Source: an uncultured Gammaproteobacteria bacterium
GTDB lineage: Bacteria > Patescibacteriota > Microgenomatia > UBA8517 > JACQJR01
Reading direction: 5' to 3'
NCBI GenBank assembly: GCA_964442455.1
Contig: CAYTZB010000002.1
Location: 11,159-75,158, forward strand
Length of the DNA: 64,000 nucleotides
The notes under the pieces are model-generated. The model was not told where the DNA came from. It searched no databases and was given only the letters and a program-made list of their open reading frames with translations. Shown here piece by piece: positions 1,606 through 22,496 of this stretch. Each line of letters begins with the position of its first letter. Position 1 is the stretch's first letter. The position numbers and the translations under genes were made by a program.

Positions 1606-3609
1606 ATGGTACAGTTTCTTTCGCAGTACACATTCCACATTGTTATCGCTGCCTCAGGAGCAGCGATTCTTTATGCAATTTATCTTATTACCCAAATTTT
1701 AAAACAACCTCGCGGAACTCCTGAAATGATTAACATTGCTGATGCAATAAACGTCGGAGCAGTCGCTTATCTGCGGCGTCAGTACAGTGTTGTTGCAGGC
1801 ATTGCACTTCTTCTGGCAGTACTCATTGCCTGGTTTCTTGGAATGCATGTCGCCGCAGGATTTCTTGTTGGCGCGCTGGCTTCAGCCGTCGCCGGAATTG
1901 TGGGAATGTACATTTCGGTGCGAGCAAACGTTCGCGTCGCAGAAACAGCCAAACAGGGACTCGCTCAAGCGCTTGACCTCTCATTTAAAGGCGGAGCGGT
2001 AACCGGACTTCTGGTTGCCGGACTAGCACTCTTGTCAGTCACCGGCACGTTCCTAGTAGCCCAGCAAAACCTTCCTTTATCGCAAACCTTAACAACCCTT
2101 ATTGGGCTTGGATTTGGTGGCTCGCTCATTTCGGTCTTCGCTCGACTGGGTGGAGGGATCTATACAAAAGCAGCTGACGTCGGAACGGATATGGTCGGGA
2201 AAATTGAACAGGGGATTCCCGAAGATGATCCTCGAAACCCAGGAGTTATCGCCGATCTAGTAGGCGATAATGTTGGAGATTGCGCAGGAATGGCAGCGGA
2301 TTTGTTTGAAACGTATGTTGTCACCGCAGTTGCGACAATGCTTCTTGGGTTTTTAAGCGGAAGAGGGGACGTCGCAATTATTTTCCCGCTCATTCTTGGT
2401 GCAGTAACACTTACTGCAACTATCATTGGTACCTTTTTTGTTAAACTACCACGCGGTGAGAGCATCATGGGAGCACTATACCAGGGGCTGGCTGCAACTG
2501 TTGTTATCAGCGCAATCCTCCTATACCCCATAACCCAGTTTTATCTTGGTACGAACTTATTCTTTGCTGTTCTTGTCGGATTTGGAGTAGCGCTTGCCAT
2601 GGTAGGAATCACCGAATTCTTTACTTCAAAGAAATTTGCAAGCATTAGGAATCTCGCGCAGGCGTCTGAAACCGGACACGCAACCAACATCATTGCAGGA
2701 CTCGCTCTATCGCTTCGGTCAACCTTTCCAGCAATTCTTGTTATTGGATTAGGAATTCTGCTTGCTTACCAGGTTGGAGGACTCTACGCTATAGCAATTG
2801 CGGCAGCAAGCATGCTATCGCTCACTGGTATCGTTGTTGCTATTGACGCATTCGGTCCCATTACCGACAACGCAGGTGGTATTGCTGAGATGGCAAATTT
2901 GCCCGAGAAAGCTAGAAAAGTAACTGATGCACTCGATGCTGTAGGAAACACTACAAAAGCAGTTACTAAAGCGTATGCAATCGCCTCAGCAGGCCTTGCA
3001 GCACTCGTACTTTTTGCGTCCTACATCCAAGAATTAGGGGAGAATAGCCCGATAATCTTTTCTCTCTCTTCACCGTCGGTTCTGGTCGGGCTCTTTCTTG
3101 GGGGAGCACTCCCGTACCTTTTTGCAAGTTTTGCTCTGGAGGCAGTAGGGAAAACAGCAGGAAGTTTAGTTGAGGAAATTCGGCGGCAATTTAAGACCAT
3201 CAAAGGGATAATGGAAGGCAAAACTCGTCCCCAATATGACCGATGTGTTGATGTGGTTACCAAGGGAGCTTTGAAAGAGATGGTTATCCCAGCCCTATTA
3301 CCTGTACTTGTGCCAATTATCGTTGCATTCACTCTTGGAGCTCAAGCACTCGGTGGACTTCTCATAGGGACAATTATTACCGGACTCTTTGTTGCTCTTT
3401 CGATGACGACCGGTGGAGCAGCCTGGGATAACGCAAAAAAATATATTGAAGAGGGACACTTTGGTGGAAAAGGAAGCTTTGCTCATCAAGCAGCAGTAAC
3501 GGGCGATACCGTCGGCGACCCCTATAAAGACACCGCCGGGCCTGCCATAAACCCCATGATTAAGGTTGTAAACATTGTCGCTTTGCTTATTGCCCCGTTA
3601 TTGGCATAA
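1606..3609 (+). CDS. hppA: membrane-bound H+/Na+-translocating pyrophosphatase
   Basis: 667-aa polytopic membrane protein carrying the H+-PPase signature motifs [17 protein letters not shown] and [17 protein letters not shown]. Confidence 0.93.
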
Positions 3610-3631
3610 GTTTCCCAGGGCCACAAGAGCG

Positions 3632-3660
3632 TTGTATTTTGCTTCAAAATCTCGTATAAT
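3632..3660 (+). promoter_or_regulatory. sigma-70-like promoter (TTGTAT, 17-nt spacer, TATAAT) upstream of the gyrA leader
   Basis: ttgtat at 3632-3637, a 17-nt spacer, tataat at 3655-3660. Confidence 0.4.
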
Positions 3661-3677
3661 TATACAGTTTCAGCCTC

Positions 3678-3779
3678 ATGGATATAGGTAAAATTCAACC
3701 AGTTGAGATAAAACACAGTATAAGAAATAATCCAGGATTTAGCGCGCGAGGCGAACTTTGTAAGAAGCGAAGGTAACCC
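3678..3779 (+). CDS. 33-aa leader ORF whose first 11 codons duplicate the gyrA N-terminus ([11 protein letters not shown])
   Basis: atggatataggtaaaattcaaccagttgagataa at 3678-3711 matches the gyrA start at 3947-3980 in 33 of 34 nt. The ORF then diverges and stops at taa 3777-3779. Confidence 0.4.
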
Positions 3780-3885
3780 TTTCGAAAAATGTGTCGAGTC
3801 GTACGAAGAATGAGGTAGGAAGTTCTAATAAGGGATTCCGTATGATGAGACGCAAGCGAGGAGTGGATTATTACACTCGAACTAC

Positions 3886-3908
3886 CGCTCTATACGACGA
3901 GCGTTTTT
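3886..3908 (+). terminator. intrinsic-terminator-like hairpin (CGCTC-tatacga-GAGCG followed by TTTTT) inside the gyrA leader
   Basis: A perfect 5-bp stem with a 7-nt loop, followed by ttttt, located 40 nt upstream of the gyrA ATG. Confidence 0.45.
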
Positions 3909-3946
3909 GAGAAAGGTGTTTCCGAAGCTTAACATAAATAACAAAG

Positions 3947-6535
3947 ATGGACATAGGTAAAATTCAACCAGTTGAGATAACAGAAGAACTTCAAAAGTCG
4001 TACCTCGACTACGCAATGTCGGTCATTGTTGCGCGCGCGTTGCCTGATGTGCGCGATGGACTAAAACCCGTACACCGTCGAATCTTGTACGCAATGCACC
4101 GTCTGGGACTGCGGCCGGGCGGGGGATTCACAAAATCAGCAAAAGTAGTAGGAGAGGTATTAGGAAAGTATCATCCTCATGGTGACATGCCGGTATACGA
4201 CGCTCTCGTCAGGCTTGCTCAAGACTTCTCCATGCGCTATCCGCTGGTTTCGGGACAAGGAAACTTTGGTTCAGTTGATGGGGACCCTCCTGCTGCCATG
4301 CGTTATACCGAAGTGCGTCTCGCATCAGCGGCAAATGCGATGCTAGCGGACTTGGACAGCGACACGGTCGACTGGCTTGATAACTTCGATACGACGCTTA
4401 AAGAGCCCGTTTATTTGCCTGCAAAACTACCAAACCTTCTGCTCGCGGGTGCGGACGGCATTGCGGTCGGAATGGCAACCAAAATTCCGCCTCATAATCT
4501 TCGAGAGGTCGTAAAAGCCGCTCTTGCCACGATTGCACGAGGAACACTAACTCCGGTAGAGAACGGCGAAGAACCACTCGCAACCTTCACCCTAAAAAGA
4601 ATTGAACTCGCGGTAAAAGAAAACCAAGAAAGCGATGATATTCCTATTCCAAAGCTCCAGTTTGCCTCCGAGATTACCACAGAAGAGCTTATTACCCACA
4701 TTCCTGGTCCTGATTTCCCCACGGGAGGCGCAATCTACGACGCGCACTCCCTTATCGAAATGTACGGGAGCGGCCGAGGCAAGATTACCGTTCGTGGAAT
4801 AGCAAAAATTGAGGAAGGAAAGGGAGGAAAACAGCGAATTGTCGTGACAGAGATCCCTTATCAAGTGAATAAAGCACAGCTGGTCGCTCGTATTGCACAA
4901 CTAGCACGCGATAAGAAAATTCAGGGAATCTCGGACATTAGGGATGAGTCTGACAGGGCAGGGATGTCAATTGTTATAGAACTTCGACGTGACGCAAAAC
5001 CCAAGGCAGTGCTCAATAATCTCTATAAACATACCACACTTCAAACAAGCTTTCCTGCAAATTTTGTCGCGTTGGTAGACGGAGTGCCTCATACCTTGGG
5101 TCTTAAACGTATTCTTACTGAATACATTGACCACAGACAGAGAATTATTGTACGACGTACGGTATTTGAACTGCGAGAAGCACGGCGTCGAGCACATATT
5201 TTGGAAGGCTTAAAAATCGCGCTTGATAACTTGGATGCAGTTATTGACACGATAAAGAAAGCGGCGGATGCAGATGAAGCAAAACAGAAATTAATGAGCC
5301 GCTTTGGGTTAACAGAAGTTCAAGCAACGGCAATTTTGGATATGCAACTGCGGCGCTTGGCTCGTCTTGAACGAGAAAAAATTGAGCAGGAATGGAAAGA
5401 ACTGCAGGAACTTATTAAAAAGCTAGAAGGAATTTTAACGACCCCCCAAAAAACACTCGACGTCCTGACTGACGAGCTAGAAGAGCTTGCAAAAGTATAC
5501 GGTGATATTCGGCGCACGAAAATCTATCAAACGAAACTGGGAGAATTCTCGCAAGAAGATTTGGTGGCAAAAGAGGAAACGCTCATCACATTGACTGCTG
5601 GCGGGTATATAAAGCGAGTTCCATTTTCTACCTATCGTCAACAAGCACGAGGCGGAAAGGGAGTAATGGGAACCGCAGTAAAACGTGAGGATGAAATCGT
5701 GCATCTCACCTCTGCCTCAACGCATGACCTCCTTCTCGTATTTACCGATAAGGGGCGAGTGTACGCAACTCCCGTGTGGGAAATTCCCGAAGGAAGCCGA
5801 CTCTCCCGAGGCCAAGCAATTATTAATTTAGTGAATCTTGAAGCTGAAGAAGCAATTCAAACAATCCTTCCTTTAACCAAAAATGGAGACACTAAGTTCC
5901 TCTTTATGGCAACCAAAGGGGGCGAGGTAAAAAAGACTGGAATTCTTAAGTTCGCAAACATTCGGGGACGAGGAATCGTAGCAATTAAACTAGACAAAAA
6001 TGACCGATTAGCATGGGTCAAGCCAACAACAGGGGAAGATGAAATTTTATTGGTTACACAAAAAGGGAAGGCAATCCGCTTTAAGGAGGCACAAATCAGA
6101 CCAACAGGACGTGCCACAATGGGAGTACGGGGGGTTAGGCTTGGAAAAGATGATTCTGTTATCGGAATGGAGGTAATTTACAAAAGAAAAGATGTTGATG
6201 GTCGGAAAAAACCATTCACTGACATTCTCGTGGTCACCGAACGGGGATTAGGGAAACGAACTCCTGTCAAGCTATTTCCGCTTCAAGGAAGGGGAGGAGT
6301 GGGAGTAAAAATTGCAAACATTAATAACAAAACTGGTAATATAATAGTGGCGCTCTTTGCGGTTGAAGATATAAAGCAAATCATTATTACCTCAAAAACA
6401 GGTCAAGTCATTAAATTGCCCATCAGAAATGTCCCTCAATTAGGACGGGCAACCCAGGGGGTAATCCTTATGCGGTTTACAAAAGAAGAAGATGGAGTTG
6501 CCGCAGTTGCAACAGTTGATGAGGGTGAAGAATAA
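3947..6535 (+). CDS. gyrA: DNA gyrase subunit A
   Basis: 862 aa. Contains [24 protein letters not shown], the active-site region and C-terminal beta-pinwheel repeats. Confidence 0.95.
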
Positions 6536-7301: not shown

Positions 7302-8240
7302 TCATTTATTCCCTCTATGAAACGCTTCGTGAACATCTCGTAACTGCTTATTAGTTACGTGGGTGTAGATTTGGGTTGTTGAGATGTTTTTGTGGCCGAG
7401 CATTTCTTGGACTGAGCGTAAATCTGCTCCTGCCATCAACAAATCGGTGGCAAACGAGTGTCGCAAGACGTGTGGCGTAGCCTCAACGGGCAATTTTATC
7501 TTACGAACATATTTCTTAATCATGCGTTGAATTGAACGGGGAGTCAGACGCATTGACTCGTCACTTCCTGTTACTTCCTTTTTGCCAGCATAGCGAATGA
7601 ATAATGGCTTATACGGATCATCGCGTGTGGCAAGATAATCGGCAATGTATTGTGCAGCACGCCTTGAAAGAAATACCACGCGGGGGCGCCTTCCTTTCCC
7701 AATAATCCCAAACTCTCGGGAATCAAGATCAAGTTTATCACGGTCAAGAGAGACAAGCTCAGACACACGAAGCCCAGTCGAGAATAAAAGTTCAAGGATT
7801 GCCTTGTCGCGTTTACCTTGTGGAGTCGACAAAGAAGGTGCAGAAAGTAGCCGCTCAACCTGTTCACCGTTCAAAAAATTCGGTGTATGCGCATCTGCCT
7901 TTGGCAAATCAAGCTTTTCAGGAGCAAGTGCTTCATGGTCATTTTTTCGAAGCCATTTTAAAAAAGCACGAAGTGCAATAATATGGTAACTTTGGGTTTT
8001 GCGAGAAAGGGGAGTGTTATGTGAGGTAAGACGAGAGAGGTAAACTCTGTATTGTCGCACACTTTCATTGTTGATATCACGCACGTTGGGCGCCGATTTC
8101 TGTTTCTCTAGCCACTCATAAAACCGCCGCAAATAATGGTTATAGTTACGGATGGTCAATGGCGAAACATTCCGCTCGATCTCTAAATACTCAAAGAACT
8201 GGTTAATGAGATTTTTGAGTTCCATCAGGCAGTTATACAT
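7302..8240 (-). CDS. tyrosine site-specific recombinase, XerC/XerD family
   Basis: C-terminal catalytic motifs HVLRHSFATDLLMAGADLRSVQEMLGHKNISTTQIYTHV, plus an N-terminal SAM-like domain. Confidence 0.85.
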   Translation of the reverse strand: MYNCLMELKNLINQFFEYLEIERNVSPLTIRNYNHYLRRFYEWLEKQKSAPNVRDINNESVRQYRVYLSRLTSHNTPLSRKTQSYHIIALRAFLKWLRKNDHEALAPEKLDLPKADAHTPNFLNGEQVERLLSAPSLSTPQGKRDKAILELLFSTGLRVSELVSLDRDKLDLDSREFGIIGKGRRPRVVFLSRRAAQYIADYLATRDDPYKPLFIRYAGKKEVTGSDESMRLTPRSIQRMIKKYVRKIKLPVEATPHVLRHSFATDLLMAGADLRSVQEMLGHKNISTTQIYTHVTNKQLRDVHEAFHRGNK

Positions 8241-8272
8241 CTAGTTTACACTTCGACAAGCTCAGTGTCAAC

Positions 8273-8286
8273 ATTGTGCGACACAA
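8273..8286. repeat. 14-nt palindromic motif ATTGTGCGACACAA, copy 1 of a direct repeat pair
   Basis: Identical 14-mer recurs at 9115-9128. The internal inverted arms are TTGTG/CACAA. Confidence 0.7.
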
Positions 8287-8349
8287 GCTATTTTTAATCA
8301 TTTTTCTTCTTCTATTATTTGCTTCTAAAGATAAAAATTTTGTATAATC

Positions 8350-8913
8350 TTGTTTATGGAAAGCCTTTTCGGAAGACATACAGTATTTAATGAGGACTTA
8401 AAATCGCTCATTATCAATTATTACACGGGCGTGGACCAAGTCATTTCTGCGTGGTCTTATGAACTTGCTTCTCTAACTGATTTTGAGAGCTCTTACATAA
8501 AGAGCATTATAGACACAGTTTTAGAAGGTGGAGGAGGCGTTGGAATAGTTGAATGGCCTGTGGGCAACCAACCAATGCAAGCGACACTAATAACCAAAAA
8601 TTCCATGCAAAGAGCAATAAACTACAATAATAGATTTCTCCCTTCAGAAGCCTCTTCTCTCCCTGAGGAAGAAACATACGACATACACATTGGAATATCA
8701 CCAAAAGATTTTATAGTGGTATTCAAATCTGCAAGTTTTCAACTACCTTTTGTATTTGATAATGAACCAAAAGGCAGACAAAGAAGAGGTGCTATTCTTT
8801 ATAAAGAGCCGGACGGCAAGTGGAAACCCTTGCTCGGAGTTAACTCTGTAAGGAATCAAATGAATTGGGTTTTATTTGATGAAGCCTACCAACTTTCATT
8901 CACTCAATCTTAA
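8350..8913 (+). CDS. hypothetical protein (187 aa)
   Basis: ORF bracketed by the two ATTGTGCGACACAA copies. No known motif. Confidence 0.4.
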   Translation: MFMESLFGRHTVFNEDLKSLIINYYTGVDQVISAWSYELASLTDFESSYIKSIIDTVLEGGGGVGIVEWPVGNQPMQATLITKNSMQRAINYNNRFLPSEASSLPEEETYDIHIGISPKDFIVVFKSASFQLPFVFDNEPKGRQRRGAILYKEPDGKWKPLLGVNSVRNQMNWVLFDEAYQLSFTQS

Positions 8914-9114
8914 ACGAAAAACAGGACACGTGTGGCCTATAGTAGGGGAGTGGGATTCGGTTAATCTTCGGAAGAGATAAAATACATAGGCGGCTCCAAA
9001 CGGGAGAAACATAAGAAAAATAAGCTTAATTTAACAAAAAAAATTTCAAAACTTGGGTGAAACATAAAGCAATACCATCCCTCCTCCACACACTCATTCT
9101 ACGTCGTAAAAGTA

Positions 9115-9128
9115 TTATTGTGCGACAC
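9115..9128. repeat. 14-nt palindromic motif ATTGTGCGACACAA, copy 2
   Basis: Exact match to 8273-8286. Confidence 0.7.
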
Positions 9129-9610
9129 AATACCACCTTTATTCCCTAGTCAAACAACTCTAGCTTTTTCTTCTTAAAGAGAGTAGGGTCGAAAATAAAC
9201 ATTAGAGCCCCCGAGCCAACTATACTTTTCTTCCCGCATTTCTTCTCGTATTTGTTTGTACTTCTATGACTCTTCCCCAACACTCTCTCCTCAGTTATCC
9301 ACATCCACTTTTCTCCGAACTAAAAACATATATCAAACTATATCATTTAAAGCTAAATAGGTATATTAGAGGGAAAGGAGCGGGAGTAAATGCAGCGCAG
9401 AATTGCTCTTGGAAGGAAAAGAGCTTCGGGTTTTCTTCCCGCAAGCTAATTAGCAGTTTCTTTGTTAATCTGCGTGAAAAGTTATCCTATAATGTGTGAA
9501 AACCCTATAGTAAACTATAGGGTAAATAGTGAGCTTGCCGAACTACTCCCCTTCCCCTGCTCCTGTCAACTAAAAAATTTAGATATTAGACATTAGAAGA
9601 AATTTTAAAG

Positions 9611-10381
9611 CTACCCTCCCCATTTTGAGCTCAAATACACGGCAAGAAGTACGACTAGCCCTACCAAAAGATACTCCTTCACTGTTCGCGCAAATAATCG
9701 GCCAACAAGTTCAGCTTGGAGAAACCCAAGGAGCACATACAGCACTGTCGTCAGAAAGAGTGATGCAACAACCACCGTCACCGGCCAGAGCGATATCATA
9801 AACCCAATCTCCCCCAAAACGGCGCTCACTACCGCAGACCACAGTATCAAGCGAGGGTTCACTCGCTCATCAAGCTCGATACTCCATACGCTCTGTAAAA
9901 CGAGTGGGAAGGAGAGAAGTAATGCACCTCCCCCATTAACCCAAGGAGCAAGCCGAAATGACCACACGGTATCAAACAAAAAGAAAGAAGTCGCGAGAGT
10001 CAATAAAAATCCAACTGCGTGAGCTGCTCGAAGAAGAGCAATCGTACGAATTGCGGCAACATTATAAATATTTGCAGTTAAAAGCAGCGCATACATCCCC
10101 AATCCATACAAGAATACAACAGGAAGCCGCGCCAGTAGTGCGCTCGGGAGCAAAAAGTAGAAAAACCCTACCCCCGCAGTAAATGCAACCGGCAAAACGA
10201 GCGTGAGGAGGGTGGCATTGCGACCGACTGTCTCTCGAAGTGACCAAAGTGAAAGAATGCCCGAGCCCACAACAACCGCCACAATCGCCTCATAGCGAAA
10301 CAGTACATCTGTTAATTGAATAATCAAGAAAGCTCCAGCTAAAATTATTGAAGTGAAAATAAATTTTCTTCTTTTAGACAT
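9611..10381 (-). CDS. hypothetical polytopic membrane protein
   Basis: 256 aa, six or more hydrophobic helices. No catalytic motif recognised. Confidence 0.5.
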   Translation of the reverse strand: MSKRRKFIFTSIILAGAFLIIQLTDVLFRYEAIVAVVVGSGILSLWSLRETVGRNATLLTLVLPVAFTAGVGFFYFLLPSALLARLPVVFLYGLGMYALLLTANIYNVAAIRTIALLRAAHAVGFLLTLATSFFLFDTVWSFRLAPWVNGGGALLLSFPLVLQSVWSIELDERVNPRLILWSAVVSAVLGEIGFMISLWPVTVVVASLFLTTVLYVLLGFLQAELVGRLFARTVKEYLLVGLVVLLAVYLSSKWGG

Positions 10382-10389
10382 GGCTCTTT

Positions 10390-11127
10390 CTATTTACCTA
10401 TTTGTCCAAGAATTTCTTGTGGAATATCAATATTCGCCCAAACATTCTGTACATCATCATGCGCCTGAATATTCTCAAGAAATGAGACTACTTTTTGAGC
10501 CTCACTCGGATTATTAATTGTAACAAGATTTTTGGGCCGCAAAACGAGCTCTAAACTTGCCACATCAAACCCCAGTTCATTTATCTTCTCTCGCAGTGAA
10601 GAAAGCTCGCGAGTGTTAACAAAGATTTCAATTCCATCCGGTGTCTCTTCTAAATCCTCCACTCCTGCATCAATAAGCGCTAACATCTGCTCTTGCGGAG
10701 AGTTAGTTTTTTGTACCACGAGCTGTCCAAGCTCCTCAAATTGATACGAGACACTGCCGGGATTCCCTAGTCTCCCCCCTCCCCGCTCAAACAAGTTTTT
10801 AACTTCCTGTGCAGTTCTGTTCTTATTATCTGTTACTGCTTGAACTACTACCGCAACCCCCGAAGGACCATAGCCTTCATAGGTTGCCTCTTCAACCCCT
10901 GCTCCCCCAACAGCCCTGGTTATAGCTCGCTCAATATTGTCCTTAGGCATGTTAGCAGCTCGCGCTCTATCAATGGCAAGCCGAAGCTTGAAATTGGCAT
11001 CTGGGTTTACCCCCACTTTTCCTGCAATTGTTATTGCACGGGCAAGCTTCGAGAACAACAAACCCCGCTTAATATCCGTTGATTCTTTCTGCCGCTTAAT
11101 TGTTGACCATTTACTGTGTCCAGACAT
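10390..11127 (-). CDS. yebC: YebC/PmpR-family transcriptional regulator
   Basis: MSGHSKWSTIKRQK...GYGPSGVAVVV pattern. Start trimmed to the conserved MSGHSKW. Confidence 0.9.
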   Translation of the reverse strand: MSGHSKWSTIKRQKESTDIKRGLLFSKLARAITIAGKVGVNPDANFKLRLAIDRARAANMPKDNIERAITRAVGGAGVEEATYEGYGPSGVAVVVQAVTDNKNRTAQEVKNLFERGGGRLGNPGSVSYQFEELGQLVVQKTNSPQEQMLALIDAGVEDLEETPDGIEIFVNTRELSSLREKINELGFDVASLELVLRPKNLVTINNPSEAQKVVSFLENIQAHDDVQNVWANIDIPQEILGQIGK

Positions 11128-11248
11128 AACTCTTGTATAGTATAGCAAACACCTTTTAAAAATATTAATAAACCACGAATATACAACCGATAACTGTCCA
11201 TCTACTGCTTGACTTACCTCTTTACCCCGTGTTAAAAATCATCAAAAC

Positions 11249-22410: not shown

Positions 22411-22496
22411 GCCCGGGTGGCGGAATGGTTTACGCGCACGACTCAAAATCGTGTGGTCTTACGACCATGTGGGTTCGACTCCCGCTCCGGGCACCA
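22411..22496 (+). tRNA. tRNA-Leu (anticodon CAA), long variable arm, encoded CCA
   Basis: 7-bp acceptor stem GCCCGGG/UCCGGGC, anticodon stem CACGA/TCGTG with loop CTCAAAA, variable arm TGGTCTTACGACCA, T-arm GGGTTCGACTCCC, discriminator A followed by CCA. Confidence 0.85.

Follow-up and report, generated by a model that had tools for sequence, protein, structure and literature searches.

The dif site of Escherichia coli comprises 28 bp, arranged as two 11-bp arms on either side of a 6-bp centre (11+6+11); its XerC arm reads GGTGCGCATAA, and AA/TT flank the centre. Linkage of the recombinase gene to its site is a hallmark of single-recombinase Xer systems (PMC5357621), and both XerS/difSL of Streptococcus and Lactococcus and XerH/difH of Helicobacter and Campylobacter consist of one Xer gene linked to a cognate dif-type site (PMC5357621). 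Archaeal dif sites, which are not adjacent to xerA, have been searched for as unique, conserved and noncoding sequences with an 11-6-11 architecture (PMC2958812). In unidirectionally replicating chromids of Pseudoalteromonas, dif2 lies next to ori2 and the skew has no two-replichore pattern (PMC7858055). Here, we describe a locus on a chromosome of a member of the Microgenomates (candidate phyla radiation, CPR/Patescibacteria), of which a stretch of 64 kb, referred to as the window, was analysed. It contains a single Xer-family tyrosine recombinase gene (xer), a 28-bp dif-like site (site B) and, at the predicted xer promoter, a lone copy of one arm of that site (site A). Coordinates refer to the plus strand of the window; the xer strand is the minus strand.

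An earlier note on this DNA had drawn attention to an exact 14-mer that brackets a single open reading frame (ORF) next to the recombinase gene, and had suggested a comparison with dif, which proved to be the right lead: the second copy lies inside an 11-6-11 site. The 14-mer, ATTGTGCGACACAA on the plus strand, is indeed present in two exact copies, at 8273-8286 and at 9117-9130 (2 nt away from the 9115-9128 first given for copy 2), and no further match with up to two mismatches was found in the window. By itself, this repeat is not beyond chance. When the window was simulated with a first-order Markov model, an exact 14-mer pair less than 1 kb apart arose in ~23% of the runs; two or more matches to the 14-mer pattern were obtained in 4 of 100 shuffles, and a repeat search listed dozens of comparable short repeats near the two copies.

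The repeat was identified as real because its first 10 bases (ATTGTGCGAC on the plus strand, GTCGCACAAT on the xer strand; in the following, the arm) are conserved at both positions among relatives. Two sets of loci were compared. The xer-selected set was built from one Xer gene per genome in 80 Microgenomates genomes (L001-L080). For the B-selected set, metagenome contigs were scanned with the site B pattern only, ignoring xer, which gave at least 120 loci, one stretch per contig; among the matches listed are five contigs of 0.79-1.19 Mb. In the complete Microgenomates genome CP066686.1, site B is located near 0.85 Mb. The pooled comparison comprised 189 loci, and the 10-mer recurs at both positions in most of these ~190 loci. 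The tie between the repeat and the adjacent tyrosine recombinase suspected in the note is partly supported. In background DNA, the arm motif was matched once in 0.67 Mb and once in 0.51 Mb. The last four bases of the 14-mer, from which its palindromic appearance stems, are not conserved: in the closest relative sharing the ORF (L204), copy 2 reads ATTGTGCGACATAT and has lost the palindromic tail, and the palindrome TTGTG-N3-CACAA is almost never present across the 80 xer-selected loci. The inverted TTGTG/CACAA arms around CGA described in the note are there as letters; the functional unit would be the 10-nt arm, without a 3-nt core.

Site B (9101-9128, minus strand) reads GT-GTCGCACAA-TAATAC-TTTTACGAC-GT on the xer strand. 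Its left arm is copy 2 of the 14-mer minus the four unconserved bases, and this arm (9117-9126) pairs with an inverted second arm (9103-9111) across a 6-bp centre. The consensus derived from the related loci is AT-GTCGYACAA-TRWWAC-TTTTRCGAC-GT (11+6+11 bp), i.e. two inverted arms of 9-11 bp with arm centres ~14 bp apart, a spacing that fits two tyrosine-recombinase monomers. In 66 loci, the arm positions and the two outer bases of the centre were invariant, and the four inner bases of the centre varied.

The site occurred once per locus and in one orientation relative to xer in 68 of the 80 xer-selected loci, 0.33-3.9 kb upstream of the gene, and the scan of metagenome contigs yielded at least 120 further loci with a single match per contig. 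In all of these it is intergenic, between the genes for a DUF5656 membrane protein and a YebC/TACO1-family protein (DUF5656/YebC) on one side and xer on the other. The distance from site B to xer ranged from 83 to 5522 bp, and wherever the flank was long enough, the gene was almost always found on the same side and strand. In the B-selected loci, xer and then usually gyrA follow beyond site B, with DUF5656 and YebC on the opposite side; xer was not seen in three B-selected loci with 3.7-7.9 kb of flank on the xer side. In the window, the Pfam-assigned DUF5656 (9611-10381) and YebC/TACO1 (10390-11148) genes, both on the minus strand, are separated from xer by site B, and this flank is kept by synteny in 69 loci and in the at least 120 B-selected loci. 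Site B is unique in the window. No second complete site was detected with up to three mismatches on either strand in 2.8 Mb of loci (189 loci with ~14 kb flanks), and a scan of viral contigs gave zero matches. A look-alike with 4-5 mismatches (TCCGTACAATTGCTCTTTTGCGGG in L029) lies inside the DUF5656 gene, at ~10027-10050 of the window, in the segment encoding RTIALLR; it recurs at the same place in L023, L027, L029, L066 and L166 and probably represents coding conservation, not a site.

The xer gene lies on the minus strand (ORF 7302-8240), adjacent to and divergent from the bracketed ORF, just as the note had stated. As start codon, the ATG at 8225 is favoured over the ORF end at 8240, since the predicted -10 box extends to 8243 and alignments with homologues begin at residues 1-9 of the resulting version of 307 amino acids (7302-8225). 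The assignment to the Xer family was made with Pfam, NCBIfam and structure alignments. Pfam identified a Phage_integrase domain (E = 8e-43) and a SAM-like N-terminal domain (E = 2e-16), and the protein aligned end to end with XerD (1a0p) and XerA (4a8e). Among PDB entries, XerD was matched with 6e-40 and XerH (5jjv) weakly, with E = 1e-13. The sole XerC/XerD/XerA/XerS model of NCBIfam passed was XerA_Arch (score 233.5 vs cut-off 220); the scores for XerC (271 vs 335) and XerD (261 vs 330) stayed below their cut-offs, as did that for XerS (139.5 vs 267), which together with the weak XerH match places the protein outside the XerS/XerH clade, and the integron-integrase score was far below (122.8 vs 265). 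The catalytic Arg, His-x-x-Arg, His and Tyr are present in the motifs GLRVSE, HVLRH, LGH and IYTH. Across the 80 Microgenomates genomes, Xer is 58-78% identical, and no second Xer-like gene was found in the 64-kb window.

Site A (8273-8282, minus strand) is the lone left arm, which reads GTCGCACAAT on the xer strand and is separated by 1 nt from the downstream -35 box of a predicted sigma-70-type xer promoter (8243-8271, minus strand; -35 TTGACA at 8271-8266, 17-nt spacer, -10 TAAACT at 8248-8243). This promoter gave 10 of 12 consensus matches in a promoter scan, and its layout TTGACA ... GTAAACT recurs in relatives. Within the 260 nt preceding xer, the arm was located in 65 of 79 loci and in 50 of 74 (115/153), vs ~0.0005 expected. 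A TTGAC-type -35 box comes after a gap of 1 nt in 54 loci and of 4 nt in 21, and the arm touches the -35 box in 84 of the 153 loci. In ~24 more distant loci, the 3' half of the arm (YACAAT) is itself the -10 box, spaced properly from TTGACA, which is a second way of overlapping the xer core promoter. In L034, L042, L053, L058, L067, L070, L077 and others, this half reads TACAAT, TAAAAT or CACATT and forms the -10 hexamer 16-18 nt past TTGACA. A conserved second arm at site A was not found across the loci; a full pseudo-dif at this position was considered and rejected, CGAC being present at the right-arm register in few loci. The alternative idea of the earlier note, that the two copies are an operator pair, would hold for copy 1, which is placed where an operator would sit; copy 2 is half of the dif-like site, and there is no palindromic pair. 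As a separate observation, the inner part of the promoter spacer in the window (8249-8265, CACTGAGCTTGTCGAAGTG) corresponds, exactly inverted, to the segment found in several relatives (CACTTCGACAAGCTCAGTG in L031; also L076 and L008). It is flanked by a short inverted repeat, CACT/AGTG, the inversion is common to the window and L204, and it looks like a small hairpin-flip inversion.

With moderate confidence, we propose that the repeat is the recognition arm GTCGCACAAT of the neighbouring Xer, used both in a dif-type core site and on the xer promoter. At 9101-9128, the arm and an inverted, slightly different arm, GTCGTAAAA, would form a 28-bp dif-type core site across the 6-bp centre, to which two Xer monomers would bind. 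On a dimeric chromosome, two B sites would synapse and recombine across the 6-bp centre, resolving the dimer. At 8273-8282, an Xer monomer on the lone arm would compete with RNA polymerase, resulting in negative autoregulation of xer, and the ORF of 185 amino acids between the two sites would be lineage-specific cargo in a permissive slot of fast turnover, not mobilised by the two copies. The conservation and architecture of the sites, the single site B per contig, the synteny, the promoter placement and the variability of the slot are observed in the loci; Xer binding to the arm, recombination at site B and repression via site A, which would make site A an autoregulatory Xer operator, we infer from the sequences.

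Several points weigh against this proposal. A recognisable site B was missing within the flank covered in 12 of the 80 xer loci, and a clear site A in ~25-30% of loci. Unlike a classical dif, site B shows no sign change of replication-associated skew, and with a DnaA box on one side and an AT-rich tract on the other, it could instead bind an origin-associated protein. The 3' half of the arm, YACAAT, resembles a -10 hexamer, so that its conservation at the promoter could partly reflect RNA polymerase. In the recombinase, the catalytic beta-hairpin Lys is replaced by Arg, the motif GKGxKxR reading GKGRRPR (residues ~170-176); of 81 Xer proteins from Microgenomates, ~59 share this Arg and ~22 retain Lys. 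Finally, adjacency and geometry are the grounds on which the arm is assigned to Xer.

In comparison with XerCD/dif of E. coli, site B is likewise a noncoding 11+6+11 site with AA/TT beside the centre, and its left arm, ATGTCGCACAA, is similar to the XerC arm. Unlike in E. coli, the right arm departs from the XerD arm consensus, a single recombinase gene, linked to the site, was detected in the window, and the skew does not reverse at site B. With XerS/difSL and XerH/difH, the locus shares the linkage of one Xer gene to a dif-type site and arms that are imperfectly symmetric, of which the left one looks preferred here because it is reused at the promoter. The recombinase is of the XerC/D/A type with 307 amino acids vs ~355 in XerS/XerH, the centre measures 6 bp vs 11 bp, and, unlike in the XerS/XerH modules, a variable gene slot lies between gene and site, an extra lone arm is present at the promoter, and the site adjoins a DnaA box, away from a skew sign change. 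Site B has the 11-6-11, noncoding and conserved character by which archaeal dif was searched for, is likewise unique within the window, and has conserved AT-rich flanks in common with the archaeal site (PMC2958812). The recombinase passes the NCBIfam XerA cut-off; unlike the archaeal site, site B is near the xer gene, and the host is a bacterium. The Pseudoalteromonas chromids have a dif close to the origin as proposed below for this locus, at 4-27 kb from ori and with marker-frequency proof, compared with ~0.2-0.4 kb here, read from the sequence (PMC7858055); the chromids are plasmid-derived secondary replicons, whereas a main chromosome is concerned here. Variable genes beside Xer or tyrosine-recombinase sites are also known from integrative mobile elements exploiting Xer (IMEX), pdif modules of Acinetobacter and integrons, and in integrons intI diverges from attI as the recombinase gene here diverges from the variable slot. 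These elements are bounded by two complete sites or attC, in contrast to the one complete site and lone arm of this locus, both of which empty slots keep.

The orphan gene in the slot between sites B and A (8356-8913, plus strand, 185 amino acids) starts more likely at ATG 8356 than at TTG 8350. Its promoter (TTGCTT at 8319-8324, 18 nt, TATAAT at 8343-8348, plus strand) is conserved letter by letter in L204. The -10 box ends 7 nt before the ATG and leaves no room for a ribosome-binding site, which suggests that the mRNA is leaderless. As the note had recorded, the product has no recognisable function: no family was found in Pfam, NCBIfam or PHROGs, and the AlphaFold model was unusable (pLDDT, the predicted local distance difference test, of 34). 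Two very large searches returned a single cluster of homologues with 64-65% identity, located in the same slot in L204. The ratio of nonsynonymous to synonymous substitution rates (dN/dS) between the window and L204 was 0.26 at a dS of 0.86; the ORF is a real gene.

The slot itself is hypervariable. Among 69 loci, it held no gene in 19, one gene in 36 and two to four genes in 14, and the genes fell into 52 families, 47 of which were singletons. They comprise a HAD-type phosphatase, a hydrolase, IS200-like genes and uncharacterised proteins, with no integrases. All 19 loci with an empty slot retain both site B and site A. Between site B and the cargo lie ~190 nt of conserved noncoding DNA, so the ORF does not abut the full site. 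Extra copies of the arm were found inside the slot in 10 of the 69 loci, some of them bracketing a gene (L065, L067). Use of the site by phages or IMEX was considered and rejected, given the zero matches in viral contigs and the cargo devoid of integrases.

The ~700-bp stretch downstream of the ORF (8914-9610), described in the note as noncoding and unusually long, contains no supported ORF; it is densely conserved and carries motifs that recur throughout the phylum, a perfect DnaA box among them. The two intergenic regions are 83-86% identical between the window and L204, vs a dS of 0.86 at the synonymous sites of the ORF, and because it is more conserved than those sites, the noncoding DNA around site B is under strong constraint. 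On the xer strand, the DUF5656 stop codon is followed by a G-rich box with a hairpin palindrome, a pair of TTTTCAYR boxes, a 16-mer, the DnaA box and site B; after site B come a G-rich box, a T-rich tract, the direct repeat CCGAA-N6-CCGAA and a C-rich box. These latter elements constitute the right module (8936-9087, minus strand), delimited by the composition profile over 189 loci and by motif positions: the G-rich box GGAGGAGGG at 9079-9087, the T-rich tract of ~80 nt with 70-78% A+T at ~8986-9066, the direct repeat at 8956-8971 and the C-rich box ending in CTCCCCTACTATAGG at 8936-8955, all on the minus strand. By composition, an AT-rich tract lies 60-140 nt from site B in the 189 loci, as expected for an AT-rich region adjacent to an oriC.

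On the other side of site B, the DnaA box TTATCCACA (TGTGGATAA on the xer strand; 9295-9303, plus strand) is the only perfect one in the window. Of 61 and 100 loci, 43 and 57, respectively, have this same box in the same orientation at 60-500 nt from site B (0.002-0.003 expected), at a median distance of 211 nt; no cluster of near-consensus DnaA boxes was detected around the locus. The 16-mer ATGATATAGTTTGATA (xer strand; 9331-9346, minus strand) lies between the repeat pair and the DnaA box; 48 out of 61 loci and 65 out of 100 contained the motif GATAYAGT (0.008-0.016 expected). The two TTTTCAYR boxes (9473-9480 and 9495-9502, minus strand) have the same orientation, are 22 bp apart and are each followed by a CCTATA element in an iteron-like manner; beside them lies the perfect hairpin palindrome CCCTATAGTAAACTATAGGG (CCTATA...TATAGG, 9503-9522, minus strand). 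TTTTCAYR occurs mostly twice per locus, with a spacing of 22-23 bp in 78 cases and of 19-23 bp in 101, amounting to 1.2-1.7 copies per locus vs 0.04 expected, and it differs from the DnaA consensus at 3-4 positions. Iteron-type theta origins, which are plasmid-like and often unidirectional, combine tandem direct repeats of ~20 bp with a DnaA box and an AT-rich region; here, the repeats number only two, and a search of the loci brought up no Rep-like gene. A search for dnaA with one query sequence found none in the window or within 14 kb in any locus. Rfam gave chance-level matches only in 8200-9700, and RNAalifold revealed no consensus structure on either strand for 55 aligned right-module sequences.

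The note had suggested a small cassette, in which the two copies act as attL/attR-like sites between which the recombinase would excise or integrate a single ORF. Direct repeats beside a tyrosine recombinase, a slot with 52 families in 69 loci, and extra arms that sometimes bracket a gene speak for such a cassette. The model fails because empty slots keep both sites, the opposite of what a cassette predicts for empty-site relatives, and because ~190 nt of conserved non-cargo DNA separate site B from the cargo. Moreover, the copies are not equivalent, one being half of a two-arm site and the other a lone arm at a -35 box; a single arm does not allow the paired cleavages by which tyrosine recombinases exchange strands, none of the 189 loci has two complete sites, the cargo does not consist of mobile-element genes, the site scan of viral contigs came back empty, and the sole homologue of the ORF is inherited at the same place. 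We thus regard this largely refuted model as very improbable. As ten loci have extra arms within the slot, the recombinase may still be involved in slot turnover to some extent, a small residual possibility. Still further down, with next to no probability, stands a chance match without function: simulated pairs and similar short repeats nearby would allow for it, and it is refuted by the comparative data, the 10-mer being found at both homologous positions in most of ~190 loci vs ~1 match per 0.5 Mb of background.

The conserved noncoding surroundings allow two further readings. The motif could be a transcription signal or an RNA element, with GTCG + YACAAT as a -10-type sequence and site B as the hairpin (GUCGC...GCGAC) with which a noncoding RNA running through the right module would begin. 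The ~24 loci that use the 3' half of the arm as a -10 box are in line with this, as are a TAtAAT-like hexamer preceding site B and ~200 nt of conserved sequence downstream of it, in which 5' purine-rich and 3' pyrimidine-rich boxes could pair. In the majority class of loci, however, a complete -35/-10 promoter is found downstream of the arm, which thus cannot serve as its -10 box; no conserved -35 box precedes site B, neither an RNAalifold consensus nor a credible Rfam match was obtained, and the sole variable stem position combines freely, with frequent C/A and no covariation. We hold this reading to be improbable. Somewhat less so, though unlikely as well, is the main rival, binding of the arm by a different protein (an origin, partition or nucleoid factor), which would make site B an origin-like component and xer one regulated gene. 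Site B is embedded in an origin-like array, with the DnaA box at a median of 211 nt to one side, the G-box and AT-rich tract 40-140 nt away on the other and the pair of 22-bp-spaced repeats further out, and the replication-type skew described below does not reverse at site B. Against such a protein speak the 11-6-11 geometry with ~14 bp between arm centres, which is that of a tyrosine-recombinase core site and not of a typical helix-turn-helix dimer, and the fact that xer is the sole gene that always accompanies the motif and bears it in its own promoter. No other gene for a conserved DNA-binding protein was detected beside site B except YebC, which is not known to bind sites of this kind. We retain the assignment of the arm to Xer as our preferred explanation.

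The raw GC skew of the window changes sign at ~9 kb, where the genes converge. A terminus defined by this change was rejected, since fourfold-site and per-strand analyses showed it to be a coding-strand effect; the coding-strand majority flips from 82-96% to 8-17% across site B. The replicative component at fourfold sites amounted to +0.05 to +0.23 and was thus positive in all bins between -15 and +15 kb of site B; this held in the window, in 68 genome loci and in at least 120 metagenome loci. The same strand looks 'leading' on both sides of site B, and neither a minimum of the cumulative GC skew nor a neighbouring dnaA, as used to define oriC, was found. For complete genomes of Microgenomates, Kadnikov et al. 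reported that the cumulative GC skew runs nearly linearly, and they hypothesised an adjacent origin and terminus, or unidirectional theta replication (PMC7143001); the same-sign skew on either side of site B matches the monotonic skew reported there. It is possible, and we put it forward tentatively, that the main chromosome of Microgenomates replicates one way from a DnaA-box/iteron-type origin at most ~0.5 kb from dif, where origin and terminus would coincide, with xer wired in via the half-site at its promoter. Co-location of origin and dif is weakened by the presence of only one strong DnaA box, by the lack of a detected dnaA gene within 14 kb, and by the orientation of gyrA and other genes past xer, which would be head-on to outgoing forks.

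The Logan version of the source contig (L081) adds ~4 kb with gyrB, a deacetylase gene, a holB-like gene and one gene on the opposite strand. Between this gyrB and gyrA lie a gene for a membrane H+-pyrophosphatase and one for a protein of 278 amino acids with no assigned function (window 1606-6535), and the genes of this gyrB-gyrA stretch (1606-6535 and L081) look lagging-strand encoded according to the fourfold-site skew. The first ~11 codons of gyrA are duplicated 268 nt upstream (3679-3711 and 3947-3980), just past a TCGTATAAT box. An exact 28-mer is shared (3684-3711 = 3953-3980), the upstream copy opens a short ORF of 32 amino acid letters, and no Rfam match was obtained; the duplicate might mimic a leader peptide or stem from an insertion that duplicated its target. 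A tRNA/tmRNA scan of the window identified a tRNA-Leu at 22411 and nothing else. Many records of metagenome-assembled genomes with a Microgenomates-type xer locus (L002, L005, L006, L010 and others) carry the titles 'uncultured Gammaproteobacteria' or 'Pseudomonadales', which probably reflects mislabelled taxonomy in third-party assemblies.

A literature search retrieved no paper on dif or Xer in Patescibacteria, nor a follow-up of the idea of unidirectional replication. The reuse of one recombination-site arm as a promoter element by the recombinase would be a simple autoregulatory design, which we did not find described for Xer systems. With its invariant flanks, the hypervariable slot is a practical reference point for comparisons of gene gain and loss among Microgenomates genomes. 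Should the tentative co-location of origin and dif be true, the region 8936-9560 would be a combined origin, terminus and dif region and the sequence basis of the monotonic skew left unexplained by Kadnikov et al. (PMC7143001), to whose hypothesis the adjacency of site B and the DnaA box gives testable coordinates. For a whole class of uncultivated bacteria, the locus offers a candidate dif site together with a candidate Xer operator.

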